The notes under the pieces are model-generated. The model was not told the origin of the DNA and did no database searches. It saw only the letters and a program-made list of their open reading frames with translations. A stretch of DNA of 64,000 nt from Acidobacteriota bacterium (GTDB lineage: Bacteria > Acidobacteriota > UBA6911 > RPQK01 > CBDFMZ01), in assembly GCA_965249865.1 (NCBI GenBank), contig CBDFMZ010000002.1, forward strand, positions 1,483,304 through 1,547,303. Reading direction: 5' to 3'. This document shows, one piece after another, positions 19,431 through 60,766 of this stretch (position 1 is the first letter of the stretch; each line of letters begins with the position of its first letter). Position numbers and translations under genes: made by a program.

Positions 19431-19433
19431 GAT

Positions 19434-20717: not shown

Positions 20718-20807
20718 TCCCTAAACCTTAACTTCAATTGACTGTCGCTGTGGCAGCTCCCCAAAATCCTCCACTGCCCTCCATTAATGAACAATAAAAC
20801 TAGACAC

Positions 20808-37888: not shown

Positions 37889-37895
37889 TGAGAAC

Positions 37896-37922
37896 GAGCA
37901 CCGGGTTGCGGCGATGGTGCTC
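37896..37922 (+). terminator. Terminator-like hairpin after nuoN
   Basis: GAGCACC-(13 nt)-GGTGCTC is a 7-bp perfect stem 8 nt after the nuoN stop, followed by TCTTCC, a weak U-tract. Confidence 0.35.
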
Positions 37923-37928
37923 TTCCGT

Positions 37929-37958
37929 ATAATGCGTATAGTGTGAAATAGGTATAAT
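37929..37958 (+). promoter_or_regulatory. Tandem TATAAT -10-like boxes upstream of nuoA
   Basis: cgTATAATgcg (37929-37934) and ggTATAATgtg (37953-37958) sit 21-45 bp upstream of the nuoA ATG at 37979. No clean -35 was identified. Confidence 0.35.
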
Positions 37959-37978
37959 GTGAAAACGATGGTCCAGCG

Positions 37979-38332
37979 ATGAGCGAGTACATCGGTATAG
38001 CAGTCTGTTTTGCCCTAGCCGGAGGCATCACGACAGCTATGGTGTTACTGGCTTCCACCTTGGGTGAGAAGAAGCCCTCACCCGTGAAGTCAGAAACGTT
38101 CGAGTGCGGGAACAAACCCTTCTCTCACCCGAGCGGGAAGTTGGCAATCAAGTTCTATTTGACTGCGATTCTGTTCATCTTATTCGATGTTGAGCTCATC
38201 TTCCTATATCCGTGGGCCGTTATCTACCGCAAGATTGGGATGGTGGGTCTAGTAGAGATGGGGGTCTTTCTGAGCATTTTGATGGTAGGCTACATCTACG
38301 CTTGGGACAACGGTGCCCTGGAGTGGCAGTGA
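37979..38332 (+). CDS. nuoA: NADH-quinone oxidoreductase subunit A
   Basis: The 117-aa three-TM protein (...FECGNKPF...KFYLTAILFILFDVELIFLYPWA...) matches the NuoA/ND3 consensus. Confidence 0.9.
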   Translation: MSEYIGIAVCFALAGGITTAMVLLASTLGEKKPSPVKSETFECGNKPFSHPSGKLAIKFYLTAILFILFDVELIFLYPWAVIYRKIGMVGLVEMGVFLSILMVGYIYAWDNGALEWQ

Positions 38333-38333
38333 T

Positions 38334-38834
38334 ATGCTGAACGATTCGTTCTTAACCAGTCGCCTAGATAAGGCCCTTGGCTGGGCCCGAAAGTTTTCCA
38401 TCTTCCAGTACCCCTTTGTTACCGCCTGCTGCGGGATGGAGTATATGGCAACAGCCTGTTCTCACTATGACGTCGACCGCTTTGGAGCGGGCTTTCCCCG
38501 GTTTTCTCCGCGCCAAGCCGACGTGCTTTTCGTGGTGGGCACGATCAGTCACAAGATGGCACCCGCCCTCAAACGCATCCACGACCAGATGGCCGAGCCG
38601 AAATGGGTCGTTGCTTTTGGAGTCTGCACCTGTACGGGCGGCTTCTATGACAACTATGCAACCGTGATGGGTATTGACACGATCATGCCGGTGGATATCT
38701 ACATTCCGGGTTGCCCACCGAGGCCGGAGTCCGTTCTGGACGGGCTAATGAAGCTCCAGGAAAAGATTCAAAACCAACACACCACAGGCCAACGATCCGC
38801 ACCTGAGCCTCGCCCGGACTCCTTCAAACAATGA
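38334..38834 (+). CDS. nuoB: NADH-quinone oxidoreductase subunit B
   Basis: ACCGMEYM, GVCTCTGG and PGCPPRPE are the N2 Fe-S cluster Cys motifs of NuoB. The start was placed at ATG 38334 (MLNDSF...). Confidence 0.9.
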   Translation: MLNDSFLTSRLDKALGWARKFSIFQYPFVTACCGMEYMATACSHYDVDRFGAGFPRFSPRQADVLFVVGTISHKMAPALKRIHDQMAEPKWVVAFGVCTCTGGFYDNYATVMGIDTIMPVDIYIPGCPPRPESVLDGLMKLQEKIQNQHTTGQRSAPEPRPDSFKQ

Positions 38835-39412
38835 ATAACCCTTCTTTGATTGAGTCTGTCCGTGAACGCTTCCCCGGTGCGGTGTCGACTTCTCACGCCT
38901 ACCGTGGCGACGAAACAGTCGTTCTGCGCCCGGAGTTTCTCCTCGAGGTCGCACGGTTCCTCAAAGAAGATCCGTCCCTGCGGATGAATTTCCTCATGGA
39001 CTTGACCGCTCTGGATTACTCCACCTTTGGCAAAAGTCCTGCGCCGGCTTTCTTTGCTTCCTCGGGTATAACGCTGCGTCCCTTATCCGAGATCCCGGAT
39101 GCGGAACCGTGGCCTGGTCCGCCGGAACAAACACGCTTCGCCGTGGTGTACCACTTCTATTCTCTGAAGCACAAACACCGCCTCAGGCTGGTGGTCTTGG
39201 TGGAAGAGACCGAGCCTGAGCTGGATTCCCTGACCGCATTGTGGGCTGGTGCAAACTGGCTCGAGCGGGAGGTTTGGGACATGTTTGGTATCCGATTCCG
39301 AGGACATCCCGATTTGAAACGAATTCTGATGTACGAAGAGTTCGAAGGACACGCTCTGCGTAAGGACTACCCCGTGAACAAGCGGCAACCCCTGATCGGT
39401 CCGACCAACTGA
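38831..39412 (+). CDS. nuoC: NADH-quinone oxidoreductase subunit C
   Basis: ...WAGANWLEREVWDMFGIRFRGHPDLKRILMYEEFEGHALRKDYPV is the conserved NuoC/30-kDa C-terminal block. Confidence 0.85.
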   Translation: MNNPSLIESVRERFPGAVSTSHAYRGDETVVLRPEFLLEVARFLKEDPSLRMNFLMDLTALDYSTFGKSPAPAFFASSGITLRPLSEIPDAEPWPGPPEQTRFAVVYHFYSLKHKHRLRLVVLVEETEPELDSLTALWAGANWLEREVWDMFGIRFRGHPDLKRILMYEEFEGHALRKDYPVNKRQPLIGPTN

Positions 39413-39421
39413 TGGTAATCC

Positions 39422-39697
39422 GTGGGTCGGTATGTCTTTGGTCTATGGTTCTCCGATGACAACCAGTTCCTCGTGCTTTACTCGGAATCTCATTCGTCGT
39501 CGAGGACAGAAACGATGAGCTTGGACCTTGTCCAGGACTGGAATACGGCAACAATTGCAATTACAACGACCACCATTGAGGGTCTGTGGGTTGTTGGGTT
39601 GCCGGATATTGCCAATGTACGTGGCCCTAAGAAATATCCTCTTCTGAACACCGAGCATCTTTTTGGAGCGATAGTCCAAAGATCCATTAAGCCCTAG
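39422..39697 (+). CDS. Small hypothetical ORF (91 aa) in the atypical 325-bp nuoC-nuoD spacer
   Basis: The ORF fills most of the spacer and no family was recognised. It may be non-coding. Confidence 0.2.
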   Translation: MGRYVFGLWFSDDNQFLVLYSESHSSSRTETMSLDLVQDWNTATIAITTTTIEGLWVVGLPDIANVRGPKKYPLLNTEHLFGAIVQRSIKP

Positions 39698-39737
39698 ACC
39701 CATGAAACCATGCACCCACACACCCACCTCCCCCCCC

Positions 39738-41099
39738 ATGGAGACATCCCAGACGACTTTGAGCAACACCCCGGATCTCGAGACGCGCGATATGATGCTC
39801 AACATTGGCCCAGCCCACCCGGCTATGCACGGCATCATTCGGATCGTGGCCGAGCTCGATGGAGAGCAAATCCGAAGCGCCGAAGTAGAAATCGGCTACC
39901 TTCACCGTGGCTTTGAAAAAATGGCGGAAGTGGTGGATTACAATGGTGTAGTACCCTACACTGACCGGCTCAACTACGTCTCCCCGCTCATAAACAACAT
40001 GGGATACTGCATGACCGTGGAAAAACTGCTCGGGATCTCGGTCCCCGAGCGCTGCCATTACATACGGATCATCGTCTCGGAAATTTCCCGGATCACGGAC
40101 CACCTCACCTGCGTGGGGGCGACCGCCATGGAGTTGGGGGCCTTTAGCGTCTTTCTCTACCTAATCAAGGCCCGCGAGTATCTCTGGGATCTTGTGGAGA
40201 TGGTGACCGGAGCACGTTTGACAGTCAGCTACTGCCGCGTGGGCGGAGTGAAGGCGGACCTTCCCAAAGATTTTTCCGAGGCTTGCCACAAGGCATTCGA
40301 GGAGACACGCAAGGTTCTCGGCGAGGCGGATGGACTCCTCACTCGCAACCGTATCTTCACAGACCGAATGAAAGGAACAGGCGTGATCTCCGTTGAAGAC
40401 GCCATCTCCTATGGAATCACAGGCCCCTTTCTTCGTGCCAGCGGCGCGGACTACGACGTACGTAAGGACTGCCCATATGCCGTCTACGAGCGGCTGCCTT
40501 TCGATGTTCCGGTGGGAACCCATGGGGACAACATGGATCGTTACCTCGTACGTATGGAGGAGATGGAACAGTCTATGCGCATCGTGGAGTCAGCGCTGCG
40601 AGACATGCCGAGCGGTCCGATTCTTACAAATCCTGAGACAGGACGGCCCATCCCAGCCGCGGATATGGTGGACCTGGCCAAGGTAGGTAACATAGAGACC
40701 ATAACAGGTGGATGTGCTGTGGTCGGTCCAACTCTCAGTGGCTCTGGTCGCGCCCAGCATCCCTCGATAGCTGCTGATGAAAAAAGGGCCTTTCTCCCTC
40801 CCAAAGAGGACACCTACGGCAACATCGAAGGACTCATGAACCATTTCAAGCTGGTCATGTTCGGCCACGGGGTTCGACCGCCCAAGGGAGAGGTCTACTT
40901 TCCTGTGGAAGGGGCGAACGGAGAGCTCGGGTTTTACGTGGTGAGCGACGGAGCAGGACGTCCCTACCGAGTTCGGGTTCGTCCGCCCTGTTTCGCCATC
41001 ATGTCGGCCCTATCCAAGCTCCTGGTCGGAGATATGATGGCCGATATGATCCCCACCTTCGGATCGGTCAATATGATCGGAGGAGAGCTCGATCGATGA
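39738..41099 (+). CDS. nuoD: NADH-quinone oxidoreductase subunit D
   Basis: MMLNIGPAHPAMHGIIRIVAELDGE...RLNYVSP is the NuoD/49-kDa N-terminal motif. The start is ambiguous (39702 or 39738), and a C8 homopolymer sits just upstream. Confidence 0.85.
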   Translation: METSQTTLSNTPDLETRDMMLNIGPAHPAMHGIIRIVAELDGEQIRSAEVEIGYLHRGFEKMAEVVDYNGVVPYTDRLNYVSPLINNMGYCMTVEKLLGISVPERCHYIRIIVSEISRITDHLTCVGATAMELGAFSVFLYLIKAREYLWDLVEMVTGARLTVSYCRVGGVKADLPKDFSEACHKAFEETRKVLGEADGLLTRNRIFTDRMKGTGVISVEDAISYGITGPFLRASGADYDVRKDCPYAVYERLPFDVPVGTHGDNMDRYLVRMEEMEQSMRIVESALRDMPSGPILTNPETGRPIPAADMVDLAKVGNIETITGGCAVVGPTLSGSGRAQHPSIAADEKRAFLPPKEDTYGNIEGLMNHFKLVMFGHGVRPPKGEVYFPVEGANGELGFYVVSDGAGRPYRVRVRPPCFAIMSALSKLLVGDMMADMIPTFGSVNMIGGELDR

Positions 41100-41160
41100 G
41101 TATTTTAGATCAGTGAGTCTCACAAATTAAACCCATGAACCTATAAACCAACAAAGAATA

Positions 41161-42957
41161 ATGACCGCGGATTTAGAAGCAAAGGCTCAGCAGATCCTTA
41201 AACTTTACGAGCAACCTAAGGCAGCGATGCTACCGCTCTTATGGCTCGTCCAGGAGAATCAAGGCTATGTATCCCAGGAAGCGGAGACTTGGGTGGGACA
41301 CATCCTGGGTGTGACTCGTTCCCATGTGCGCGAAGCGATCTCTTTCTACACCATGTTCCACACCAAACCAGTGGGCAGACGCGAGCTTCGGGTCTGCACG
41401 AGTCTACCTTGTCTTTTGCGCGGTTCTACGGATGTACTGGGTCAAATCAAGGAAAATCTGAAGATTAGCCCCGGGGAGACCAACCCGGGTCAAGAGGTCA
41501 CCCTCACAGAAGTTGAGTGTTTGTGCGCCTGCGAAATGTCACCGATGGCCCAACTCGACGAAGCCTTCATCGGACCTCTCGAAGGAGAGACCATGGATGC
41601 TGTTCTTCGGGCCTCACTCGAAAATCCTGAATACTCGAATCCTTTACCAGAACCTGAACCTTTCATCTCTACCAATGGGCCAGTGCTCTCCATGCGCTTC
41701 AAGGATCGGGACGGGACTTGGTTGGAAGACTACCTTGCTGACGGTGGATATCTAGCGGCCAAGAAGGCTCTCACCTCAATGGCCCCAGAACAGGTGATCG
41801 AGGAGATCTCCAAAGCCAACTTGCGCGGTCTGGGTGGGGCGGGGTTTCCAGCCGGCAGGAAATGGTCCTTTATTCCCAAAGACACGACCAAACCAAAGTA
41901 CCTGGTAGTCAATGCAGACGAGGGTGAACCAGGCACCTTCAAAGACCGCTACATCATGGAGCGGGATCCGCACGCCCTAGTCGAAGGCATGATTATTTCA
42001 GCCTATGCCATCGGCAGCCACAAAGCCTATGTTTACGTCCGGGGCGAGTACTTCCGGCCGGCTAAACGTTTGCAGCACGCCCTGGATGAGGCCTATGGCC
42101 AGGCGTGGTTAGGCAAGAATATCCAGGGGACCGGTTTTGATTTAGACGTTGTCATTCACCGAGGTGCCGGGGCGTATATCTGCGGAGAAGAGACCGCGCT
42201 CTTGACATCGCTCGAGGGTGGAAAGGGCTTTCCTAGGCTCAAGCCTCCCTTTCCGGCCATTTCGGGCCTGTTCTCCTGCCCTACCATCGTCAACAATGTG
42301 GAGACTCTAGCCTGCGTCCCATTCATCGTGCGGAACGGAGCAAAACATTTTGCCGACATTGGCACGGCCAAACAGGGCGGCACCCGACTCTTCTGCGTTA
42401 GCGGACACGTAGCCCAGCCCGGCCTCCATGAGGCGCCGGTCAGCATAACCCTACGGGAACTCATCGCCGCCGCCGGTGGTGTCCGGGATGGCAAGCAGCT
42501 CAAGGCCGTCATTCCTGGTGGCATCTCAGCCAAGATACTGACGGCCGATGAGATCGACGTAACCATGGACTTCGACTCCCTTATGGCCGCCGGAAGCATG
42601 GCAGGATCCGGAGGAGTGATCGTGATGGACGAGACAACGTGCATGATCGATATACTCTTATCAGCGACCCGGTTCTTCGCCCATGAGTCTTGCGGACAAT
42701 GCTCACCGTGCCGCGAGGGGACCGGTTGGGTCTATCGCATAGTACGCCGAATCGTCGAGGGGCGTGGGAGTCTGAAAGACCTGGACGACCTCCTCGCCAT
42801 TGCCGGCGACATGGAAGGGAATACTATTTGTGTCTTCGCCGATGCAGCTGCCTGGCCGGTCCAATCCTACATCACGAAGTTTCGGAACGAGTTTGAGGAG
42901 TACATTCAGAGTCACCGTGACACTGGGAAGAAGGAGGTATCCGAATGCCCAGTCTAA
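41161..42957 (+). CDS. nuoEF: Fused NuoE-NuoF (24-kDa 2Fe-2S subunit fused to 51-kDa NADH/FMN subunit)
   Basis: The first ~160 aa (CTSLPC...ECLCAC, a thioredoxin-like 2Fe-2S pattern) is followed without a stop by the NuoF motifs GLGGAGFPAGRKWSF (FMN/NADH site) and ESCGQCSPCREGTGW (N3 4Fe-4S). Length is 598 aa. Confidence 0.85.
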   Translation: MTADLEAKAQQILKLYEQPKAAMLPLLWLVQENQGYVSQEAETWVGHILGVTRSHVREAISFYTMFHTKPVGRRELRVCTSLPCLLRGSTDVLGQIKENLKISPGETNPGQEVTLTEVECLCACEMSPMAQLDEAFIGPLEGETMDAVLRASLENPEYSNPLPEPEPFISTNGPVLSMRFKDRDGTWLEDYLADGGYLAAKKALTSMAPEQVIEEISKANLRGLGGAGFPAGRKWSFIPKDTTKPKYLVVNADEGEPGTFKDRYIMERDPHALVEGMIISAYAIGSHKAYVYVRGEYFRPAKRLQHALDEAYGQAWLGKNIQGTGFDLDVVIHRGAGAYICGEETALLTSLEGGKGFPRLKPPFPAISGLFSCPTIVNNVETLACVPFIVRNGAKHFADIGTAKQGGTRLFCVSGHVAQPGLHEAPVSITLRELIAAAGGVRDGKQLKAVIPGGISAKILTADEIDVTMDFDSLMAAGSMAGSGGVIVMDETTCMIDILLSATRFFAHESCGQCSPCREGTGWVYRIVRRIVEGRGSLKDLDDLLAIAGDMEGNTICVFADAAAWPVQSYITKFRNEFEEYIQSHRDTGKKEVSECPV

Positions 42958-44618
42958 GCATCGACAACCGCGACATAAACGTGCCTGAGGGAACCACCGT
43001 CATCCAGGCCGCAGAGACACTGGGGATTTACATTCCGCGTTACTGCTACCACCCGGGGCTATCCATCGCGGGAAACTGTCGTATCTGCCTCGTGGAAGTG
43101 GAAAGGTTCCCCAAGCTCCAGATTGCCTGTAACACGCTCGCGACCAAGGGGATGGTTGTGCACACCAAAAGCCGCAAGGCCGAAGCCGGCCAGCGCGCTG
43201 TGCTGGAGTTCCTTCTAGCCAACCACCCGCTCGACTGCCCGGTCTGCGACCAATCCGGCGAATGTGACCTACAAAATTTCTACATGAATTTTGGGCTCTA
43301 TAATCCGCGGTTCCGAGAACACAAGGTTAAAAAGAAAAAAGCCGTGCAACTGGGCCCCCATGTAATGTTGGACCAAGAGCGCTGTATCCTCTGTTCCCGC
43401 TGTGTGCGCTTCACAGACGAGATCTCCAAGACTGGAGAGTTCGGCATTTTTAATCGTGGGGATCGGGCTGAGTTGGGACTCTACCCTGGCGATGTACTCG
43501 ATAATCCCTACTCGGCCAACGTGGTAGATATCTGCCCCGTGGGAGCACTCACCGAAAGTGATTTTCGTTTCAAGACTAGGGTCTGGTACCTCTCCAGCGC
43601 CCCTACGCTCTGCAACGGCTGTAGCCAAGGATGCAACATGGATATCCATTTCGTGCTCGACCGACCTCATCTGAACAACGGAGCTCGGGTCCTACGCGTC
43701 AAGCCCCGCTATAATCCGGACGTCAATCAATGGTGGTTGTGCGATGAGGGGCGCTACGGCTTTGGCTGGCTGGATCAGGCACGGTTGAATAAGGTACGTG
43801 GACCGTCAGGAGAGGCTACCTGGGAGCAAGCCCTCACAGAGATCTCAACTGCCTTGAAAGGCTCGGACCAGGAAGAGGCCCTTGGGCGAAACACGGCCAA
43901 GGACGAGAGAGGGGCCTACGGTAAAATTGGTGTGATTATCTCCGCCCGACTAACCAGCGAGGAGCTATTTCTGATCCGGGAGATTTTTCAGCGTGTCCTG
44001 GGTGCACAAGTTAGCGCCTCTATCGTGGAGGAAAAAGGGTCCTGTGATGACTTCCTGATCAGGGGAGACAAAAATCCGAACACCCTAGGCGCAACCTGGT
44101 TGGGCTTGGCGGGTCGAGACACACCAGACGCCAGTCAGATTGTGGACCAAGCATTAGACGGAAAACTCGAGGTCCTGTGGGTCTTCGGTCACGATCTGGT
44201 GAAACTTTTCGGGGTAGAGAAAGTCCGAAAGCTCTCAGAAAAATTGCGGCTCTTCGTTTTTTCCGGCACCAACGAAAACCCGACGGTGGCTTTGGCCCAT
44301 TGGGTCCTACCTACTGCAGCCTATGTGGAGAAGGACGGCACCTTCGTGAACTGCCAAGGTCGAATTCAACGCATCGGGCGAGCCTTTCCGCCACTCCATC
44401 ACTCCCGAGAGGACTGGCGTATCCTCCTGGAATTAGCCGGGAAATTGGGTCTGCCGCTCGATTGGCACACCCCGGAGGATATCTTCCAAGGGCTTGCCAG
44501 TGTGTTAGCACCTTTCCAAGGATTGAGCTATGAAAAGATCGGAGCTCAAGGAGTTGACGTCGAGACGACCAAGTCCACCTCAGGGGCAACTGCACCACAA
44601 TGGAAATTTTTCTCATAA
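42945..44618 (+). CDS. nuoG: NADH-quinone oxidoreductase subunit G (short form, 557 aa)
   Basis: N-terminal 2Fe-2S (CYHPGLSIAGNCRIC), then HPLDCPVCDQSGECDLQ and CILCSRCVRF 4Fe-4S motifs. It is shorter than the 700-900 aa proteobacterial forms. Confidence 0.85.
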   Translation: MPSLSIDNRDINVPEGTTVIQAAETLGIYIPRYCYHPGLSIAGNCRICLVEVERFPKLQIACNTLATKGMVVHTKSRKAEAGQRAVLEFLLANHPLDCPVCDQSGECDLQNFYMNFGLYNPRFREHKVKKKKAVQLGPHVMLDQERCILCSRCVRFTDEISKTGEFGIFNRGDRAELGLYPGDVLDNPYSANVVDICPVGALTESDFRFKTRVWYLSSAPTLCNGCSQGCNMDIHFVLDRPHLNNGARVLRVKPRYNPDVNQWWLCDEGRYGFGWLDQARLNKVRGPSGEATWEQALTEISTALKGSDQEEALGRNTAKDERGAYGKIGVIISARLTSEELFLIREIFQRVLGAQVSASIVEEKGSCDDFLIRGDKNPNTLGATWLGLAGRDTPDASQIVDQALDGKLEVLWVFGHDLVKLFGVEKVRKLSEKLRLFVFSGTNENPTVALAHWVLPTAAYVEKDGTFVNCQGRIQRIGRAFPPLHHSREDWRILLELAGKLGLPLDWHTPEDIFQGLASVLAPFQGLSYEKIGAQGVDVETTKSTSGATAPQWKFFS

Positions 44619-45694
44619 AGCTCGTGTTGGCGGGGATCGTTTTTTTCGCGGTCTTAAACTTCGCAGGACTCCATACCTGGGTGGAACGGAAACAGTCCGC
44701 TCTCATCCAGGACCGGATCGGGGCTAACCGAGCCGACATCTTTGGATTCCGATTCTTGGGAGTCTTCCACGGCATCGCCGATGCGATCAAGATGTTCACT
44801 AAGGAGGACATCGTACCTGAGAGAGCAGACAGGACGCTGCACACACTGGCTCCCTTATTCTCGGTCTTCTTCGCTCTGGTGGCCTTTGCCGCAATCCCGT
44901 TTGGAGACCGCTTCATCATGGAAAGCGGCCGGATTATAGAACTCCAAGTGGTCAAGCTGGACGTAGCCCTGCTCTACGTCTTTGCCATGCTCTCTCTGGG
45001 AGTCTATGGTGTGATTCTTGCTGGGTTTGCCTCGGGCAACAACTACGCAATCCTGGGAGGATTAAGGGCCACCGCACAGATAATCTCCTATGAGATCGCC
45101 CTGGGCATCTCCGTCATTGGCGTGGTTATGGTCTACGGGACCATGGATCTGTCTGAGCTAGTGCGGGCTCAAGGCCAGATGATTGGCGGTTGGATCCCTT
45201 TCTGGGGTTTCCTAGTCCAACCCGTGGCCTTCGTGGTCTTCATAACCGCAGCACTGGCTGAAACCAAGAGGCTTCCGTTTGACCTGCCGGAAGCGGAGCC
45301 CGAAATCATTGGGTACTTCGTGGAGTACAGCGGAATGAAGTTCGGCATGTTCTTCCTCACAGACTTCCTGGAGACCATCATGGTGGCATGCCTGGGAACC
45401 ACACTTTTTTTCGGCGGGTGGCAGGTGCCCTTCCTCGAACCGAACGGCTTCCACTTCCCTTGGGGAGGTGAGCTCTTGGTCTCCCAATTGGTCTATGTCT
45501 TACTCGGGGTTTTGAGCTTCTCGATCAAGGTTGTGATCTTTTGCTGGTTCTTCATGCAAATTCGCTGGACTCTGCCGCGTTTCCGTTACGATCAACTTAT
45601 GAAGCTAGGCTGGAAGGCTCTCTTCCCGATTTCGGTGGTCAACGTCGTAGTAACAGGCGTGGTACTGGTCTTTTTCGGGGAGGTGCCTTCATGA
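44600..45694 (+). CDS. nuoH: NADH-quinone oxidoreductase subunit H
   Basis: ERKQSALIQDRIGANR...GIADAIKMFTKED...YEIALGISVIGVVM are the ND1/NuoH signatures. Confidence 0.9.
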   Translation: MEIFLIKLVLAGIVFFAVLNFAGLHTWVERKQSALIQDRIGANRADIFGFRFLGVFHGIADAIKMFTKEDIVPERADRTLHTLAPLFSVFFALVAFAAIPFGDRFIMESGRIIELQVVKLDVALLYVFAMLSLGVYGVILAGFASGNNYAILGGLRATAQIISYEIALGISVIGVVMVYGTMDLSELVRAQGQMIGGWIPFWGFLVQPVAFVVFITAALAETKRLPFDLPEAEPEIIGYFVEYSGMKFGMFFLTDFLETIMVACLGTTLFFGGWQVPFLEPNGFHFPWGGELLVSQLVYVLLGVLSFSIKVVIFCWFFMQIRWTLPRFRYDQLMKLGWKALFPISVVNVVVTGVVLVFFGEVPS

Positions 45695-46314
45695 CCGTAA
45701 AAGTTGTCCGGAGACCCGAGCTGAATTTCTGGGAAAAACTCTATCTCCCCCAGATCTTTTCGGGCCTTAAGATAACCACCAGACACTTCTTCCGTAACCT
45801 TTTTCTCCACATTGCCCACCTTGTGGGTTGTTTCAAGCACTTTCCCGCCTCTGTCACCATCCAATATCCCGAGGAGTTGAGGCCCCTAATGTCGCGATTC
45901 CGCAGCCGCCACCGACTCACCCTCCGCGAGGACAACACCCCCCGCTGCGTGGGATGCATGCTCTGCGAGACGGTCTGCCCGGCCAAGTGCATCACCATCG
46001 TGCCCGGAGAACACCCTGAACCCCACGTCGAGAAGTATCCACTTCGCTTTGACATCGACCTTGGCGTCTGCGTCTACTGTGGTTACTGCGTTGAGGTGTG
46101 CCCTGAGGACGCGATCCGAATGGACACTGGAATTCTGGACATAGCGGCATACTCAAGGGAAGAAATGAAACTAGACATCCATGAACTCATGGACCCCAAG
46201 CTTCGTAAACCGATCCACGAATGCAGCCTGAAATTCCCTCACCAGTGCGGGTTAGCCGATGGAAAGATGAGGGGTAGTTGGGAAAAGATAAAGGGTCGTA
46301 GGGCAGGTCATTAA
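45691..46314 (+). CDS. nuoI: NADH-quinone oxidoreductase subunit I
   Basis: Two CxxCxxCxxxCP ferredoxin motifs (CVGCMLCETVCP; CVYCGYCVEVCP). The start was set at ATG 45691 (MTVKVV), which overlaps the nuoH stop. Confidence 0.9.
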   Translation: MTVKVVRRPELNFWEKLYLPQIFSGLKITTRHFFRNLFLHIAHLVGCFKHFPASVTIQYPEELRPLMSRFRSRHRLTLREDNTPRCVGCMLCETVCPAKCITIVPGEHPEPHVEKYPLRFDIDLGVCVYCGYCVEVCPEDAIRMDTGILDIAAYSREEMKLDIHELMDPKLRKPIHECSLKFPHQCGLADGKMRGSWEKIKGRRAGH

Positions 46315-46613
46315 ATCCACTGAAAAATTTAGATAATAGAACTTGTTATCCTTGGGGTCCAAGTGGGACGATTGGCTTAATAGGCAAGGCAGAATCGACC
46401 CGCATTCGCCTCTTCGTGTTGAACCCCAGAACCAAGGAGGACCCTTTACCCTTAACAAGCGCAAGATTCTTAGGAAATGATACTTTTTGTATCATAAGTG
46501 ATGTCTAGTTTGTTATTTTGGTACTTGAGTTTCACTTTGGGTAACAGCATCTTCACTCAGTTGATGAGTCGTAGGGTCTCGTACCATCGTTCGGCAGCGG
46601 GAAGAATTCAGAA

Positions 46614-49600
46614 GTGACCGGAAAGAGAATCTCCAGCAGTGTTTTCTGCCACATAGCCGTCGCGGCTGGTTTACTGATGATGCTAAGCTCGGGGCCACAT
46701 ACCGTCGCTGAGGCGGCGCCGGCAGGTGGCTCTCCACCTCTTCAGGGAGTCGACTTTTCCAGGGACATTTATCCGATTTTCGAAAAAGCTTGCCACTCCT
46801 GCCACGGTCCCCAGCTCCAGATGGCTAGGCTTCGCCTCGATTCGAAAAGGCCAGCCTTTGCCGGAGGACAGTCCGGAGAGACCATTCACCCAGGCAGACC
46901 ACTGGAGAGTATCCTCTACCAGCGCGTCGCCGGGCTGAACGACCTGGAGCGGATGCCGATGGGCGGGCAGCTGGAGACAGCTGAAATCGAGCTGATTCGT
47001 GCCTGGATTGAACAGGGTGCCGATTGGCCGGACGGGGTAAATGTCGCCGATGCGGAGATCCGCCAACACTGGGCATTCGTCTCGCCGCAGCGTCCCCTGT
47101 TACCGGAGGTTCGTAGAACGAATTGGCCCGCCAACCCCATTGACTCCTTTATCCTGGCACGTCTGGAAAAGGAGGGACTGTCTCCCTCTCCGCAAGTCGA
47201 CCGGGTGGCCCTGCTGCGGCGATTGAGTCTCGATCTGGTTGGCTTACCGCCGACGATTAAAGAAGTTGATGCCTTCGTGGCCGACCGGGACCCCGATGCT
47301 TACGAAAACCAGGTCCAACGGCTTCTGAACTCACCTCACTACGGTGAGCGCTGGGGTCGGCACTGGCTGGATGCGGCCCGCTATGCCGATTCGGACGGCT
47401 TTGAGAAAGACAAGTCTCGCCAAGTCTGGTTCTACCGAGATTGGGTGATCAATGCCCTCAATCGTGACCTGCCTTACGACGAGTTCATCATCGAACAACT
47501 GGCCGGAGACCTGCTGTCTCAGCCCACACAAAACCAAATCGTCGGCACAGGTTTTCTGCGGAATTCGATGATTAATGAGGAAGGCGGGATCAACCCGGAG
47601 CAGTTCCGAATGGAAGCTATGTTTGATCGCATGGACGCCATCGGCAAGGGTATCCTAGGCATTACGATCCAATGTGCTCAGTGCCACAACCACAAATACG
47701 ATCCACTCAAACAAGTAGAGTACTACCGCATGTTTGCTTTTCTAAACAACGCGTACGAGGCAAACATTGCTGTATACACCCCGCAAGAACAAATGAAACG
47801 AGCGCAAATCTTACGGCACATTCAAGAAATTAATGCCGAACTCAAGCACCGTCATCCAGACTGGGACGAGCAGATGAGACGGTGGGAAGAGACGGTCAAA
47901 AAAAACCAGCCGGACTGGGTGGTGGTTCGCCCCACAGTCGAAGACATCTCTACCGGAGGACAAAAGTATCTGCCCCTGGAAGACGGCTCCTTTCTGGCGC
48001 AGAGCTATGCTCCGAGCAAGCACCGGGTAAAGATGACAGTCCAGACAGCACTTCGCGACATTACCGCCTTCCGTTTGGAATTGTTGAACGATCCTAATCT
48101 GCCGATGGGCGGACCAGGCCGCTCCTACAAGGGCACGGGAGCGCTGACAGAGTTCGAGGTAGAGGCAGCACCGGCGGACGATCGGGAAAACACCACACCA
48201 ATAACGATCGCCAAAGCCACGGCTGACATTAACTTCCCAGTAACACCGTTAGAGGCCATTTTCGACGACAAAAGCGACCGGCGGCGCGTGACGGGTCCCA
48301 TCGAGTTTGCCATCGATGGCAAAGAGGAAACGGCCTGGGGAATTGACGCAGGTCCGGTGCGCCGCAATCTTCCCCGCAAAGCCGTCTTCGTGGCCGAAAC
48401 TCCTATTTCACATCCCCAGGGGACACTGCTGACCTTCTATCTGAGTCAAAAACACGGAGGAGAATATTTTCAGAGCAACAATCTCGGTCGGATTCGCCTT
48501 TCGATCACCACGACACCGGAGGCGAGAGCTGATCCACTACCGAAAACGGTTCGCGATACTCTGTCTCTGTCCATCCCTCGTGATCAGCGAAGCCCTGCCC
48601 AGATGCAGGCCATTTTCAGTTATTGGCGAACCACCGTACCGGAGTGGCAGCAGGCCCATTCGAAAATAGAAGAGTTATGGCAACAGCATCCCGAAGGCTC
48701 TGCTCAACTGGTGCTTCAGGAAGGCACCAAGCTACGCAACACCCATGTCCTAACCCGAGGCGATTTCCTCAAACTGGAAAAACAGGTGACAGGAGGCGTG
48801 CCTGCCTTTCTTCATCCATTTCTGGAAGACGCGCCAGTAAATCGTTTGGGCTTTGCCCGGTGGTTGGTGGATCGCCGATCGCCTACCACCGCGCGCTCCC
48901 TAGTAAACCGCGTCTGGCAAACCTACTTTGGCACTGGTCTGGTGGCAACCAGCGAAGACCTGGGCACACAAAGTGAACCACCGTCGCATCCTGAGCTACT
49001 GGATTGGCTAGCAGTTGAATTTATGGACCAGGAGTGGAGGTTGAAAAAGTTGCACCGGCTCATCGTGACTTCAGCCACCTATCAGCAGTCCTCCTCGGTT
49101 ACACCGGAACTACACGAACAGGACCCCTACAATCGTCTGCTGGCTCGGGGTCCACGCTTCCGGGTCGAAGGTGAAATCGTGCGCGACATCGCCTTGGCAG
49201 CAAGCGGCCTATTGAACCTGCAGATTGGTGGACCCAGCGTCTATCCGCCGGCTCCCGCGTTTCTGTTTATGCCTCCGGCCAGCTTCAGACCCAAGATTTG
49301 GCATGAAGCCACGGTAGAGAACCGCTATCGCCGTGCCATCTACACGTTTCGCTATCGTTCGATTCCCTATCCAGTACTTCAGACCTTCGACACGCCCAAC
49401 GCAGATTTTTCCTGCGTGCGCCGTGCCCGATCTAATACACCACTTCAGGCGCTGACGACGCTTAACGAACCGCTATTTCTGGAAGCCGCACAGGCGCTGG
49501 CCTTGAAAACACTACAGGAGGGCGGAGAGACAAATGTTACGCGTGTGACTTACGCTTTTCGCCGCTGCCTGGCGCGAATACCTAACGAGCCAGAGGTCGA

Positions 49601-49793
49601 CGAACTGCTAGCTCTGTTGAAGAAACAAACCGCCCGTTTCGCCCAGGGATGGGTCAGCCCCTGGGACATCGCCGGTTTTGAAGAAAACCAAAAACCACAA
49701 CTCCCCGCTGATACGACTCCTGTCCAGTTAGCCGCCTGGACTGCGGTCTCTCGAGTTTTATTGAATCTAGATGAAACCATCACGAAGGAATGA
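46614..49793 (+). CDS. PSCyt1 (CxxCH cytochrome-c-like) / DUF1549 / DUF1553 domain protein
   Basis: Signal peptide, then the PSCyt1 heme-binding motif [11 protein letters not shown]. The 1059-aa length and the trailing DUF1501 partner gene match the planctomycete-type PSCyt/DUF1549/DUF1553 architecture. Confidence 0.75.
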
Positions 49794-49803
49794 GGGCGGA
49801 GCT

Positions 49804-51249
49804 ATGAATTGTCAAGATCATCTCTATCGAAGTCGTGATCCTCGGTTGGTAAACCGGCGCTGGTTCCTGGAACAATGCCGTGTCGGACTTGGCGCCCTGG
49901 CACTCGGCCAACTCCTGAGCGATGCCGGTTACGCCAAGCCGGCAATTCCGTCGCAAAGCAATCCGTTCACACCAAGAACCCCGCACTACACCGCGAAGGC
50001 CAAGAACATCATCTTCCTCTTCATGGCTGGCGCTCCCAGCCATCTTGAACTGTTCGATTTCAAACCTCAACTAGCCAAGTTTGACGGAACCTTACCACCC
50101 GAAGATTTGATCAAGGACTACCGCACCGCCTTCATCAACCCGAGTTCAACGTTGCTCGGACCCAAGTTTAAGTTTTCTAAGCATGGGGAGTGTGGTACGG
50201 AGCTTTCCGAGTTGCTTCCCCATTTGGCTAATGTCGTCGACGATATTACGATCGTAAAATCGATGGTAACCGACGCCTTCAATCACGCACCTGGTCAGCT
50301 TTTGATGAATACGGGAACACAGCAGTTCGGCCGGCCCAGCATAGGGGCTTGGGTCACCTACGGTCTGGGCAGCCAATCCCAGGACTTGCCCGCCTTCGTG
50401 GTGTGCAGCTCCGGGAAGTCGGGCCCAAGCTGTGGAGAGTCCTGCTGGGGTAGTGGCTTCTTGCCAACTGTCTACCAGGGCGTTCCATTCCGCAGCAGCG
50501 GCGATCCTGTCCTCTATCTATCGAGCCCTCATGGCATGGACCAGGAGCTGCAGCGAGACTCCCTGGACTCAATTCGGCGACTGAACCAGATGCGCCTGAA
50601 CGTAACGGGTGATCCCGAAATTAACACGCGCATCAATTCCTTCGAAATGGCATTCCGGATGCAGACCAGCGTGCCGGAGTTAATGGATATCTCTCAGGAA
50701 CCGCAGCACATCCTGGACATGTACGGCGCCGAGACGGGCAAAGCTTCCTTCGCCAACAACTGCCTGCTGGCTAGGCGCCTGGTCGAGCGTGGCGTCCGCC
50801 TGGTCCAACTCTACCACGAGGCTTGGGATCAACATTCCTATCTAGTCAGAGATATCAAGAAGAACTGTGAAGACACCGATCGAGCTTCAGCTGCCCTAGT
50901 TCAAGATCTCAAACAGCGGGGTATGCTCGACGACGTGCTTGTCATCTGGGGTGGGGAGTTCGGGCGCACTCCAATGGTGCAAACGGGTAACGAGGACGGG
51001 CGCGACCATCACCCCAATGCCTTTTCCATGTGGTTGGCCGGGGGCGGCATCAAGCCGGGTACCACGCTGGGAGAAACGGATGAATTCGGGTTCAACGTGG
51101 TGAGCGATCCGGTTCATGTGCACGATCTGCATGCGACCATCCTGCATCTGCTAGGCTTCGATCACACCCGGCTGACCTACCGCTTCCAAGGACGCGACTT
51201 CCGCCTCACCGATGTCCACGGTGAGATCGTTTCCAAGCTCATTGCTTAG
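49804..51249 (+). CDS. DUF1501 (sulfatase-like fold) protein with a Tat-type signal
   Basis: An RRWFLEQ twin-arginine motif near the N-terminus. The ~480-aa length and its position directly after the DUF1553 gene match the conserved DUF1501 partner. Confidence 0.7.
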
Positions 51250-51283
51250 TACTCCAAGCAGATGGGGCTTGTGAGGCGAGGTC

Positions 51284-51302
51284 AAGGCGGGACGGAGCAC
51301 TC
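51284..51302. terminator. Hairpin between convergent genes (bidirectional terminator candidate)
   Basis: GGAGCAC-tcact-GTGCTCC is a 7-bp perfect stem followed by an AT-rich tract (ATAAATACA). Confidence 0.4.
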
Positions 51303-51339
51303 ACTGTGCTCCATAAATACACCTTACTCGGGGTCAGCA

Positions 51340-53838
51340 TCACTGGGAAGCTTGCAGCGTTTCCAGGGGTGATTCGTCGTAGACGCCACGGCTGTTCACT
51401 GCGCCGATCGCAAGGGTCAGTGCAGTCACGATGAAAAAGGTGATGACGACCGGAGTGGGAGATGGGACAAACACCGCGTCGAAAACGAAATAGGCCAGGC
51501 ACTCGGTAGCGGCCAACGCAATAATTCCCCCGGTCGCCGCGGCAAAAGCGCCCAGCAAAAGATACTCCACCATCAGAATCTTCAGGATTTGAGCGCGCGA
51601 GGCCCCCAGAGTTCTTAAAAGGACGCTCTCCTGCAGTCGCTGATATCGACCCGTGGCAAGCGTTGCGGTCAATACCATGAGTCCCGTGATAACACTGAAC
51701 GAAGCCATGAACCGGATGACAAAGGAAACCTTGTCGAGAACCGCGTCCATGGTGTCCAGGATCAGAGCCAGGTCAATCGAAGATACACTCGGAAACCTTT
51801 GCATGATCGCTCTCTGCAGTTTCGCGAAGAGCGGACGGGAAGGAACGCGGGCCGCCAGAACGTGAAATTGAGGTGCATTCTCGAGCACACCTTCCGGGAA
51901 GAGGATGAAGAAATTGGTCCGTAGTTGATCCCAATCCACACGGCGGATGCTGGCGACTATTGCCATCATCGGCACGCCCTGAACATCAAACTCGAGGGTG
52001 TCGCCGACAGCAACCTTCAGGTTCTCAGCGATTCCTTCCTCAAGCGAGACAGGGACCACCGGTGGGTCGCTATTGACCTTTCCCTGCCAGCTCCCTTCCA
52101 CGATCTCTTCGGTATCGCTAAGACGATTGCGATAGGTGCATCGATATTCCCTCAGCAGGGCCCATTCGGAAGTGGGTGATTCACGCCGCAACTGTTCTAC
52201 ACTTTTTCCCTCGATCGAGCTCAACCTCATGGTCACAATCGGGACATCGTGCAGTACCGGCACGTTGAGGGAACGCAGCAGCTCAGAGACTTGAGATTTC
52301 TGGTCCGATTGAATGTCAAACAAGAGCAGATTTGGCTGATTTCGGCTCGAGCGAGACACCTTGTCCAGCAAGACGTGGTGCGTCAGGTAGAGGGTTAAGA
52401 TCAAAAATGTACCCAGCCCGAGCGAGAGCATCAGCAGAGTGGTCTGATTTAGGGGCCGGTAAAGATTAGCCAGACCTTGCCGCCAGACGTAAGGCCATGA
52501 AGACGGGAACCATCTCCTGACCAAGACCATAATCAGCTTTGCAACGCCGCCGAGCAGACCAAAAATGAGCACCAACGAGACAAAGAATGCTGTACCACGG
52601 CCCCAGTGCCCCGTCTGCGTGATCGCAAAACTGAAAATGGCTCCTCCCAAGAGAAAATAAATCAACCACCGAAGCGGGTCTTTTCGTTGTGAAACACCCT
52701 GTTCATAGTCGGACCGAAGAGCAAGCAGCGGAGACATCTTCCGGATAGGCAAAAGAGGGAGCAGGGCAATGAGTAGGACGATTCCAAAACCGAGCAGCAG
52801 GCCCTCCGCAAGCGCCTTTCCAGAAACGATGAAGGGAACCTCCAAGGGTAGAAAATCGCCCAGGACGAGAGGAAGGAATGCCTGGACTCCCAGGCCTAAG
52901 AACGACCCCAAAATCGATCCCAGCAGCCCCAGAGCAGCCGCTTGGATCAAATAGACCAACACCGTTTTTCCTGAGCTTACCCCCAGACAACGGAGCATGG
53001 CCACGGTGGCGGTCTTCTGCTTGATGTACAAATGAATGGAACTGGCCACACCGATCCCACCCAGCAGCAGGGCAGCGAAAGCAACCAGTTTCAGAAAACT
53101 TCCGAAGTGACCGATCGTGCTTCCCAGTCTTGCTTTACGTTTCTCGACAGTGTCAGCTGCCAGTCTGGACCGGATGAGATCCGGTTCGATCTCTCGAACA
53201 AGTGTTTCGACATCAGCACCTTCCCCCATCTTAAAATAGACCGTATACCTGGCCCGGCTCCCAAACTGTATAAGTCCGGTCTGGTCCAGATACTCCAACG
53301 GGATAAAAACCGTCGGACCGATCAGGGAACGCACGGCCGCCTCACCGGGCGTGCTCTTGAGCCGACCAGCAATGTTAAAAATGAACGAACCCAACTGGAT
53401 TGGATCCCCCACTCCGGCACCAAACTGCAGCATCAGAGCGTCATCCGCCAGGGCGCTGGGTCCTGATTTAATGTGGTGAGCAGCGGCGGCTGGTTCAGTC
53501 TCCAGCGTGCCGTAATAGGGAAAGCCACCTTCTATCGCTCTCACCCTCACCAGCCTGCTCTTTCCACTTTCGGGGAAATGGGCCATCGACAGGAAACTGA
53601 CCTGCCGGGAACGCTCTCCCTGGATGGCGTTGATCAGCTTTTGGGCCTGGTGGGTGAAAGGCTGATTCCCGAAAATGGCCAGATCAGCCCCCAGCAATGA
53701 CCTCGCCTGCCGGTCAATAGCCCTCTCAAGGCCCTTACTGAAGGAACTGATCGCGACCAGCGCGGAAACACCAACGACAATCGAGGACATAACCCAGAGC
53801 ATCCGTTTCCGGCTGGAACGGCTGTCACGCCAGGCCAT
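51340..53838 (-). CDS. FtsX-family ABC transporter permease (two FtsX domains; YbbP/MacB-like)
   Basis: A membrane protein of more than 800 aa with two 4-TM FtsX-like modules and large periplasmic loops. It lies downstream of the ABC ATPase in the same orientation. Confidence 0.7.
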   Translation of the reverse strand: MAWRDSRSSRKRMLWVMSSIVVGVSALVAISSFSKGLERAIDRQARSLLGADLAIFGNQPFTHQAQKLINAIQGERSRQVSFLSMAHFPESGKSRLVRVRAIEGGFPYYGTLETEPAAAAHHIKSGPSALADDALMLQFGAGVGDPIQLGSFIFNIAGRLKSTPGEAAVRSLIGPTVFIPLEYLDQTGLIQFGSRARYTVYFKMGEGADVETLVREIEPDLIRSRLAADTVEKRKARLGSTIGHFGSFLKLVAFAALLLGGIGVASSIHLYIKQKTATVAMLRCLGVSSGKTVLVYLIQAAALGLLGSILGSFLGLGVQAFLPLVLGDFLPLEVPFIVSGKALAEGLLLGFGIVLLIALLPLLPIRKMSPLLALRSDYEQGVSQRKDPLRWLIYFLLGGAIFSFAITQTGHWGRGTAFFVSLVLIFGLLGGVAKLIMVLVRRWFPSSWPYVWRQGLANLYRPLNQTTLLMLSLGLGTFLILTLYLTHHVLLDKVSRSSRNQPNLLLFDIQSDQKSQVSELLRSLNVPVLHDVPIVTMRLSSIEGKSVEQLRRESPTSEWALLREYRCTYRNRLSDTEEIVEGSWQGKVNSDPPVVPVSLEEGIAENLKVAVGDTLEFDVQGVPMMAIVASIRRVDWDQLRTNFFILFPEGVLENAPQFHVLAARVPSRPLFAKLQRAIMQRFPSVSSIDLALILDTMDAVLDKVSFVIRFMASFSVITGLMVLTATLATGRYQRLQESVLLRTLGASRAQILKILMVEYLLLGAFAAATGGIIALAATECLAYFVFDAVFVPSPTPVVITFFIVTALTLAIGAVNSRGVYDESPLETLQASQ

Positions 53839-53874
53839 CTTGCATACCCACGTGTAAGACACTGTTTCCCCCGG

Positions 53875-54588
53875 TTACTTGGGCGACGGATTTGCACCGT
53901 CCGATACCACCCTCCCTGCTCGGAGACGAATGATTCGACTAGCCTGGCTGGCTAGTTCCAGGTTATGGGTAACCACAACCAGAGTTGTTCCGGCCTCCCT
54001 GTTCAGGTCGAATAGGAGCTGTCGGACCAAGCCGCCTGTTTCCGTGTCGAGGTTACCCGTCGGCTCGTCAGCAAAGAGGATTTGTGGTTGGTTGACAAAG
54101 GCGCGAGCCAGAGCAACTCTTTGTTGCTCACCTCCAGAAAGCTGCGCGGGGTAGTGGTGGAGACGCTCTCCCAAACCAACCCGCTCCAGCAGTCCGCAGG
54201 CTCGGTGTCGACTATCATTGTCGCCACGCAGTTCGACCGGCACCATCACGTTTTCCAGGGCGGTCAACGTAGGAATCAATTGGAAAGTTTGAAAAACGAA
54301 ACCCACATGTTGGTTTCGCACCAGTGCCAATTCTTCTTCCTCGAGCTGGTTAAGTGGCATTCCGCTGAAAAGCACGGTTCCCGAGGTCGGGCGGTCCAGA
54401 CCAGCACACAAGCCCAGAAGCGTGGTCTTTCCGCTCCCGGACGGACCTACAACGGCTACGGAGGCCCCCTGCTCGATGGAAAAAGAAACTTCGGTGAGCA
54501 CCGTCAGAGTGCGATTTCCACTCCGGTAGGTCTTGGTCAGACGCTCAGCCCTGAGAAGTCCGTTCAATAATTGCGCTCCTTCCTCCAC
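53875..54588 (-). CDS. ABC transporter ATP-binding protein (YbbA/LolD/MacB-NBD-like)
   Basis: Walker [11 protein letters not shown]-loop, signature [14 protein letters not shown] and Walker [14 protein letters not shown] probable GTG start lies near 54588. Confidence 0.8.
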
Positions 54589-54893
54589 ATCCCCGCAACA
54601 CGATCGCAATGGTGAGAAGAGTACGTTGTATAATCTAGCCCAGGTTATGCATAAGCTGCCTGCTGCATCGGTGAAATCGTCCGTCCTGACTGCGTTGCGC
54701 TCGATCGGCCTCATCGACGTACTGCGCGAGTACGCCTGCTGGGCTTCGGTTGAGACGCTTTGTCAGGCCGGCGCTTTCACCGTTTCGCTACGACACCTTA
54801 TGTATAATCCGGGCTAGTGTCCTGTCTCATAAATAACATGCTATTTGTTGCAGGCAAAACGTTTTCTGATTCGAGGCGTGACGACGAGTCGAA

Positions 54894-60218: not shown

Positions 60219-60231
60219 GCCGGCAAGGATG
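60219..60231. repeat. 13-bp direct repeat GCCGGCAAGGATG (left copy) flanking the IS remnant
   Basis: The sequence is identical to 60754-60766. It encodes the duplicated HPCR peptide of the split epimerase. Confidence 0.75.
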
Positions 60232-60753: not shown

Positions 60754-60766
60754 GCCGGCAAGGATG
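60754..60766. repeat. 13-bp direct repeat GCCGGCAAGGATG (right copy)
   Basis: Identical to 60219-60231. Confidence 0.75.

Follow-up and report, generated by a model that had tools for sequence, protein, structure and literature searches.

The stretch analysed here, 64,000 nucleotides (nt) of an Acidobacteriota genome (contig CBDFMZ010000002.1, forward-strand positions 1,483,304 to 1,547,303; hereafter the window), contains one copy of a two-gene module at positions 46614-51249, in which a gene for a large PSCyt1-DUF1549-DUF1553 protein (gene 1) is followed by a gene for a DUF1501 protein (gene 2). The identity of this module is near certain, and it is a self-contained bicistronic unit. We propose that its products form a periplasmic complex in which a haem-bearing scaffold and a metalloenzyme act on a glycan-like ester substrate, a reading to which we give an even chance and which builds on what was observed directly: the domains, the conserved motifs, the fold classes, the strict pairing, the joint divergence of the two proteins and the lack of conserved neighbours. 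The module was already known from studies of 2012 and 2017, and the exact proteins are present in NCBI and ENA; it is not a new kind of system. New here are two invariant CxxCH motifs, a predicted beta-sandwich resembling carbohydrate-binding modules (CBMs) and discoidin domains, a probable alkaline-phosphatase fold of DUF1501 without a sulfatase signature, the co-divergence of the two proteins as a two-gene unit, and the absence of linkage to the complex I (nuo) genes that lie upstream in this genome.

Results

The domain assignments made in the original prediction were confirmed by a domain profile scan against Pfam, in which all four families (PF07635, PF07583, PF07587 and PF07394) scored above their gathering cut-offs. 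Within gene 1 (46614..49793, + strand; 1059 amino acids (aa) from a GTG start), PSCyt1 (PF07635) was matched at aa 60-115 (E 1.2e-10; 42.2 bits against a cut-off of 22), PSCyt2/DUF1549 (PF07583) at aa 175-380 (E 6e-88; 294.6 bits against 29.8) and PSD1/DUF1553 (PF07587) at aa 743-1001 (E 4e-96; 321.6 bits against 28.5). Gene 2 (49804..51249, + strand; 481 aa from an ATG start) matched DUF1501 (PF07394) over profile positions 1-390 of 390 (E 4e-162; 540 bits). Searches of NCBIfam returned nothing above threshold for gene 1, with a single sub-threshold match to a dihaem cytochrome, and no family for DUF1501; a sequence search of gene 1 against the PDB produced one chance match only.

We take the GTG at 46614 to be the correct start of gene 1, because the resulting basic n-region, hydrophobic core and AEA site align with the N-termini of most orthologues. 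The public call begins at 46677 (1038 aa) and thus cuts off the signal peptide, and a public protein called from a later start (P0121) is 100% identical to the gene 1 product. The predicted Sec-type signal peptide (aa 1-34; 46614..46715, + strand) consists of a basic n-region with KR, a hydrophobic core and an AEA cleavage-like site, as judged from sequence, hydropathy and the similar N-terminus of most orthologues, and is expected to direct export of the protein and to be cleaved from it.

A predicted class I c-type cytochrome domain follows the signal peptide. This PSCyt1 domain (46746..47018, + strand) carries the CHSCH motif with which, as originally predicted, the protein opens (aa 60-64; nt 46791-46805), together with a candidate distal ligand, Met114. 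Residues C60, C63, H64 and M114-P115 show no variation among 60 orthologues (66-89% identical), and structure comparison matched the fold to cytochrome FoxE; the domain thus combines the CxxCH, distal Met and cytochrome c fold of class I c-type cytochromes, and haem attachment to the gene 1 product is predicted on this basis.

A second CxxCH, CAQCH at aa 354-358, had been missed in the original prediction. It lies inside the helical DUF1549/PSCyt2 domain (47136..47753, + strand; delimited by PF07583 and motif conservation), which ends with the motif C354-A-Q-C357-H358-N-H360-K361-Y-D-P364 (nt 47673-47705), and C354, C357, H358, H360, K361 and P364 are invariant in the same 60 orthologues. The DUF1549 CxxCH is also kept in all seven distant paralogues examined, which come from three phyla and one of which lacks PSCyt1; of the two motifs it therefore appears to be the more universal. 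Together the two motifs hold four of the protein's seven cysteines. The region around the second was modelled at a predicted local distance difference test score (pLDDT) below 50 and without a structural neighbour, the motif itself being invariant, and we infer that it probably binds haem as well.

The AlphaFold2 model of gene 1 (mean pLDDT 66) is confident in a beta-sandwich and partly so in the cytochrome and the DUF1549/DUF1553 helical regions, and the surroundings of the second CxxCH are poorly modelled. Judged by its modelled fold, the beta-sandwich (aa ~435-635; 47916..48518, + strand) is of the galactose-binding-domain, CBM or discoidin type, and ligand binding by it is a prediction. 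Pfam gave no family match for it even at E<=10 (aa 378-736 searched), and a Foldseek search of the whole gene 1 model against the PDB gave nothing at E<=1e-3, the weak matches likewise being CBMs. The helical DUF1553/PSD1 domain (48840..49616, + strand; PF07587) is followed by a C-terminal tail whose last ten residues, L1050-E1059 (49761-49793), are invariant or nearly so in the 60 orthologues and may serve as a docking peptide for DUF1501. Similar tails of the form (N/M)-x-(D/N)-E-x-x-x-(K/R)-(E/R) were seen at the C-termini of distant paralogues.

The overall span of the module stood as first given, except that the start of DUF1501 had been placed at 49771. The methionine encoded by the ATG at 49804 aligns with the first residue of 55 orthologues, and public assemblies carry the exact 481-aa product from this position and no exact entry for the 492-aa form (open reading frame (ORF) 49771-51249); we accordingly regard 49804 as the start. 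With this start the two genes do not overlap: the TGA stop of gene 1 (49791-49793), overlapped by a purine-rich GAGGG, is followed by a 10-nt spacer (stop and spacer at 49791..49803, + strand), an arrangement typical of, and suggestive of, translational coupling.

The N-terminus of DUF1501 (aa 1-44; 49804..49935, + strand) is a predicted twin-arginine signal peptide with the elements N-R18-R19-W-F-L, a hydrophobic core and AGYA, in keeping with the Tat-substrate pattern of an (S/T)-R-R-x-F-L-type motif, a hydrophobic stretch and an A-x-A-like site. The RRWFL motif noted in the original prediction is conserved: R18, R19, W20 and F21 are invariant in 56 orthologues, a family-wide alignment of 68 sequences (40% mean identity) has R18 invariant and R19 conserved at 90% or more, and the RR motif is present in the DUF1501 proteins of all seven distant paralogues. 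The protein has no membrane segment besides the signal peptide, and its export by Tat is predicted.

Three independent lines agree in placing the catalytic domain of DUF1501 (49999..51243, + strand) in the alkaline-phosphatase superfamily by predicted fold and homology. By single sequence DUF1501 found no relative in the PDB. The 68-sequence family profile gave weak PDB matches only, 12 of the 16 being sulfatases or LtaS that line up over the same motif block; aligned by hhalign with four sulfatases from the fetched loci, it gave a probability of 93.5% (E 2.3e-7). A weak Pfam Phosphodiest match was also present, and the nearest folds were NPP/PhoK-type enzymes; the structural and profile neighbours are without exception hydrolases, transferases or mutases of phospho- or sulfo-esters. 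The AlphaFold2 model, which was built on a shallow alignment (all sequences at least 75% identical) and reached a pLDDT of 48, was used for fold class and not for residues.

Invariant residues across the family profile are G76, K87, P88, H161, D342, H344, E385, G387, R388, R400 and H402; S79, D85 and S135 are conserved at 90% or more. Assignment of DUF1501 as a type I (formylglycine) sulfatase (PF00884) was rejected: the sequence contains no C/S-x-P-x-R motif and no Pfam Sulfatase match was obtained even at E<=10. The beta-1 Asp-Asp metal ligands of sulfatases align to Ala75-Gly76 of DUF1501, and the Asp-His of the sulfatase 'SDHG' aligns to Glu385-Phe386.

A scan of one genome per species yielded 80 orthologous loci (DUF1501 71-80% identical), which by record title belong to Acidobacteriota (52), Planctomycetota (20), Verrucomicrobiota (6) and two oddly labelled metagenome bins; the improbable labels are Acidimicrobiia (L010) and Heliobacteriaceae (L060). 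In 73 of the 80 loci, DUF1501 is preceded on its own strand by the haem partner (55-73% identical). Four of the remaining seven (L005, L014, L030 and L040) are orphan DUF1501 genes with enough flank to judge, and the other three are too short for a decision. Over 54 loci, the pairwise distances of one protein correlate with those of the other (Pearson r=0.79). Neighbour-joining trees built for each protein group all Planctomycetota copies in one clade and place the Verrucomicrobiota copies close to the base, where they form a clade in the tree of the haem partner and not quite so in that of DUF1501. The closest relatives are 82% (DUF1501) and 89% (haem partner) identical. Across Acidobacteriota, Planctomycetota and Verrucomicrobiota identity within the orthologue group is 71-83% for DUF1501 and 55-89% for the haem partner; to our knowledge, an inter-phylum DUF1501 identity of 71-80% exceeds that of most housekeeping proteins, which points either to extreme constraint or to few and old transfers between phyla.

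In the genome that holds the nearest homologue of gene 1 (89% identical; L088 8001-18006 and L089 8001-19183), a DDE transposase gene/insertion sequence element on the opposite strand takes the place of DUF1501, and a second, paralogous PSCyt-DUF1553 and DUF1501 pair follows within a few kb. More distant paralogues (~42-55% identical) were collected from six plasmid loci of Catenovulum, Chondrinema, Saccharobesus and Singulisphaera, in which all seven pairs examined are adjacent, each with the haem partner on the same strand and upstream. The description of the module as conserved and functionally uncharacterised in Planctomycetes, Verrucomicrobia and some Acidobacteria was thus borne out, and its range also takes in paralogues in Gammaproteobacteria and Bacteroidota.

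A complete nuo cluster lies upstream of the module, with nuoI as its last gene (ending at 46314). The AT-rich separation of about 300 bp described in the original prediction proved to be 299 bp (46315..46613; GC 43% against 56% in the flanking genes). A promoter scan placed a promoter-like site, TTAACA-18-AATGAT, at 46452-46481 in this gap, such matches being no more frequent than in shuffled sequence. Scans of 45500-52000 yielded no Rfam match in the gap, nothing relevant from Rfam elsewhere and no relevant terminator. Downstream, a 7-bp GC-rich hairpin, GGAGCAC-TCACT-GTGCTCC (51294..51312; sequence and RNA fold), sits in the 90-nt gap before a convergent MacB-type permease gene (ending at 51340). 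It lacks a T-run, and the terminator scan did not report it; it likely marks the end of the two-gene unit.

The placement of the module next to nuo had been taken as a hint of a respiratory role. A search within 10 kb of the 80 orthologous loci turned up NuoD, NuoH or NuoI in none of them, and the closest relatives have other neighbours (p450, 2-hydroxyacid dehydrogenase, GGT, a GSDH-family sugar dehydrogenase and a major facilitator superfamily transporter) with no nuo linkage. A link to complex I is therefore unsupported, and the position beside its genes is almost certainly incidental to this genome. A distant NuoEF/NuoG-like pair (39% and 29% identity), which looks like a different enzyme, lies downstream in a single locus, L012. 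The MacB/ABC pair and every other neighbour in the window were likewise absent within 10 kb from all 80 loci. Clustering of all ORFs of 81 loci produced no ORF family in more than seven loci that could represent a conserved third gene, and a Pfam census of 122 immediate neighbours matched 190 families, none in more than four genes. The pair has no constant companions, and within this orthologue group the genomic context is uninformative on function.

The paralogue loci have richer surroundings. One Catenovulum locus contains GH43, GH115 and GH98 glycoside hydrolases, and another a fucose permease; the Saccharobesus locus contains GH88 (two copies), a CBM9 protein, a pectate lyase, a LamG protein and a TonB receptor; and the Chondrinema loci contain sulfatase, glycoside hydrolase and SusC/D genes. 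A separate c-type cytochrome gene is found in three paralogue loci, and the Saccharobesus locus has cytochrome c and cytochrome b genes. The Saccharobesus partner is the one that lacks PSCyt1 and retains the DUF1549 CxxCH, and for this reason the haem-type motif looks like a core feature of the family.

Several further features of the window were recorded. The nuo cluster (30677-46314) is unusually arranged: J and K come first, then two MrpD/NuoL-like antiporter subunits, then M, N, A, B, C, D, NuoE-NuoF, G, H and I, with NuoE and NuoF fused (41161-42957, 598 aa). None of its four antiporter-like subunits reaches the NuoL equivalog cut-off, and a 588-aa ORF at 33256-35022 matches 'Na+/H+ antiporter subunit D' (PRK12668) with 739 bits; the cluster is presumably similar to variants of complex I that have an additional pumping subunit. 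The first MrpD-like subunit (31515-33006) is split in two frames, ORF 31515-32153 covering positions 5-81 and ORF 31822-33006 positions 96-489 of the same NCBIfam model, which reflects either a real frameshift or an error in a low-coverage long-read assembly. Two efflux systems flank the region, a resistance-nodulation-division pump with membrane-fusion protein and outer-membrane factor (18129-24002) and a MacB-type permease with an ATP-binding cassette (ABC) ATPase (51340-54714, convergent with the module); neither is conserved beside the module in the 80 orthologous loci. Relative to a 99.8%-identical ENA contig (L001), the window has at 60219-60766 an extra 522 bp (60232-60753), flanked by a 13-nt direct repeat (GCCGGCAAGGATG), that interrupts an NAD-dependent epimerase gene intact in L001 (323 aa); by eye, we take the fragment it encodes to resemble a transposase.

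Discussion

In the model that we propose, the gene 1 product would be exported unfolded via Sec, and covalent haem c would be added in the periplasm at C60xxC63H64, where Met114 would be the distal ligand, and probably also at C354xxC357H358. The same protein would supply the CBM-like beta-sandwich and a helical DUF1549/DUF1553 scaffold. The gene 2 product would fold and take up metal in the cytoplasm and then leave folded via Tat, as an enzyme with an alkaline-phosphatase (NPP/sulfatase-like) fold and its own conserved His/Asp/Glu/Arg set, and not as a formylglycine sulfatase. Because c-type cytochromes must cross the membrane unfolded via Sec to receive haem, and Tat transports proteins that are already folded and loaded with cofactor or metal, the two products would meet only in the periplasm, where a 1:1 assembly is envisaged. 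In this assembly the large subunit would provide substrate recognition and, by way of one or two c-haems, a connection with the periplasmic electron pool, and DUF1501 would carry out metal-dependent catalysis on an anionic, probably glycan-borne, ester-type substrate.

The components of this model differ in strength. A physical complex of the two proteins is likely. The substrate class, anionic, of ester type and glycan-like, is tentative and falls somewhat below an even chance; the sulfatase neighbours and CBM insertions seen by He et al. 2017 (PMC5615132) agree with the glycan context of the paralogues and the CBM-like domain described here. The redox step is put forward with similar caution, as slightly more apt to be wrong than right. 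A respiratory or periplasmic redox role had been raised in the original prediction; the respiratory hint drawn from nuo fell away, and a periplasmic redox role in general is plausible because the c-haem motifs are intrinsic to the family and not because of the position of the module. The strongest form of the proposal, in which DUF1501 would be the first alkaline-phosphatase-fold enzyme obligately coupled to c-type haems and the DUF1549/PSCyt1 haems would take part in a redox step in the cleavage or modification of a glycan-borne ester, is unlikely in our view.

Several points weigh against the proposed complex. We know of no alkaline-phosphatase-superfamily enzyme that needs a cytochrome, and hydrolysis and electron transfer are therefore hard to reconcile. 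Instead of holding haem, the second CxxCH could bind a metal or form a disulfide. Neither protein has solved relatives by sequence, and the low confidence of the DUF1501 model (pLDDT 48) means that neither active-site geometry nor a nucleophile can be assigned from it. Because the context of the orthologue group is uninformative, the glycan assignment depends on ~42-55% identical paralogues and the fold of one domain. A literature search by domain name and Pfam accession found no functional (biochemical or genetic) study of any member.

The main rival is that the module encodes a plain periplasmic hydrolase. DUF1501 would be a phosphodiesterase/phosphatase- or sulfatase-like esterase scavenging phosphorus or sulfur, its partner would only bind and present substrate, and the haems would be structural or regulatory (redox or oxygen sensing). 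This explanation fits the fold better than a haem-coupled complex does, given neighbours confined to enzymes of phospho- and sulfo-ester chemistry, nearest folds of NPP/PhoK type and the weak Phosphodiest match, and Tat export can serve metal selection alone, as in MncA. Proteobacteria, moreover, pair DUF1501 with DUF1800, and the available excerpt of PMC5122149 draws no link between DUF1800 and haem. It fits motif conservation worse: a CxxCH that is invariant in 60 orthologues and retained in every distant paralogue examined, and additional cytochrome genes that recur beside those paralogues, would be unexpected for a dispensable accessory, and the catalytic signature of sulfatases is absent. 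We regard it as improbable, if not negligibly so.

It is less probable again, and in our view distinctly so, that DUF1501 is a polysaccharide-modifying transferase that decorates or trims an exported glycan in the manner of BcsG, LtaS or OpgB, with its partner holding the polymer. The CBM-like domain would suit such a role, and DUF1800-DUF1501 operons adjoin genes for a bacterial chitin synthase and a sugar epimerase (PMC5122149). The known transferases, however, are membrane-anchored to reach lipid donors, whereas DUF1501 here is a soluble predicted Tat substrate, and no glycan synthase is found near this locus or the 80 orthologous loci.

There is very little chance that the module is a complex I accessory, co-expressed with nuo and exchanging electrons with the respiratory chain at complex I. 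It does share a strand with nuoI, which ends 299 bp before it; no terminator-like site was detected in the gap, and the module encodes c-type haem motifs. Against this stand the absence of NuoD, NuoH and NuoI from all 80 loci (the NuoEF/NuoG-like pair of L012 being apparently a different enzyme), the p450, 2-hydroxyacid dehydrogenase, GSDH-family sugar dehydrogenase or GGT genes that take their place in the closest relatives, and the promoter-like site that the AT-rich gap carries. In addition, complex I takes NADH from the cytoplasmic side, and it works with quinone, not with periplasmic cytochrome c. Least probable of all, to the point of being nearly dismissed, is a part in the intracellular membranes and complex cell plan of Planctomycetes-Verrucomicrobia-Chlamydiae (PVC) bacteria, as hypothesized by Kamneva et al. 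2012 from a correlation of 0.85 between the four-gene module variant and compartmentalised PVC species (PMC3542564), since orthologues 71-80% identical abound in Acidobacteriota (52 of 80 loci) and paralogues occur in Gammaproteobacteria and Bacteroidota, groups not known for such compartments.

With the haem-scaffold and metalloenzyme complex as our preferred reading, the target for experiment becomes sharper: an alkaline-phosphatase-fold enzyme and a partner with a universal CxxCH and a CBM-like domain. The orthologue group described here would be the best biochemical entry point, being a clean two-gene unit with high identity across phyla, and genome context, complex I here included, should not guide guesses on the role of the module. 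DUF1501 comprises 29,544 clusters at 50% identity in a representative library, and Rhodopirellula baltica has 41 copies each of DUF1549 and DUF1553 (PMC2754498); knowing the chemistry would make it possible to interpret a considerable part of the 'unknown' periplasmic proteome of soil Acidobacteria, Planctomycetes and Verrucomicrobia. If the haem-coupled form of DUF1501 were true, it would represent a new class of periplasmic redox-coupled enzyme feeding into or drawing from the cytochrome c pool.

Among known systems, the closest is the two-gene locus of the PVC superphylum that pairs a PSCyt1/PSCyt2/PSD1 protein with DUF1501, described by Kamneva et al. 2012 (PMC3542564) and again by He et al. 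2017 (PMC5615132), its domains having been first defined by Studholme et al. 2004, as cited in PMC3542564. The module of the window shares with it the four Pfam domains, gene order, strand, the twin-arginine motif of DUF1501 and a carbohydrate-binding-like domain between DUF1549 and DUF1553. It differs in its host, which is an acidobacterium and not a PVC bacterium; in its beta-sandwich, which has no Pfam family, whereas some PVC copies have a Laminin_G_3 or F5_F8_type_C insert; and in the unusual conservation of its orthologue group, 71-83% identical across three phyla. A four-gene variant, also described in PMC3542564 and present on Catenovulum and Chondrinema plasmids, adds a beta-propeller or hypothetical protein and a separate c-type cytochrome to the same core pair of DUF1553 protein and DUF1501, whereas in the window the two core genes are followed directly by the convergent MacB-type permease. 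The DUF1800 and DUF1501 operon of Proteobacteria (Goncalves et al. 2016, PMC5122149) likewise joins a Tat-motif DUF1501 and a larger partner in one operon, but the partner comes from a different Pfam family. No DUF1800 signal was found by Pfam in the DUF1549 or DUF1553 parts of gene 1 even at E<=10, and a plasmid tblastn search with the DUF1501 of the window did not reach DUF1800-linked DUF1501, which is too distant.

At the level of fold, DUF1501 is predicted to share with the alkaline-phosphatase superfamily (NPP/ENPP, PhoK/PafA, type I sulfatases and LtaS/EptA/BcsG) its core and the C-terminal blocks '...GL..T.V...(D/E)(H/F)G...' and 'D...T.L.L.G'. It departs from that superfamily in the absent formylglycine motif, in having Ala-Gly for the beta-1 Asp-Asp and Glu-Phe for the Asp-His of 'SDHG', and in a conserved set of its own (H161, D342, H344, E385, R388, R400 and H402). 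Unlike any characterised member of the superfamily known to us, DUF1501 is obligately paired with a haem protein. The modelled beta-sandwich of gene 1 has the galactose-binding-domain-like fold of CBM32, CBM6 and discoidin/F5_F8 type C modules, with no sequence-family match. The proposed export logic, finally, has its nearest analogy in the SorAB sulfite dehydrogenase and NapAB nitrate reductase, which combine a Tat-exported catalytic subunit with a Sec-exported c-type cytochrome subunit: there too the loaded catalytic subunit travels via Tat and the cytochrome via Sec, and the genes are adjacent and co-inherited, but the cofactor is molybdopterin, whereas DUF1501 has a predicted hydrolase-type fold without a recognised redox cofactor motif.

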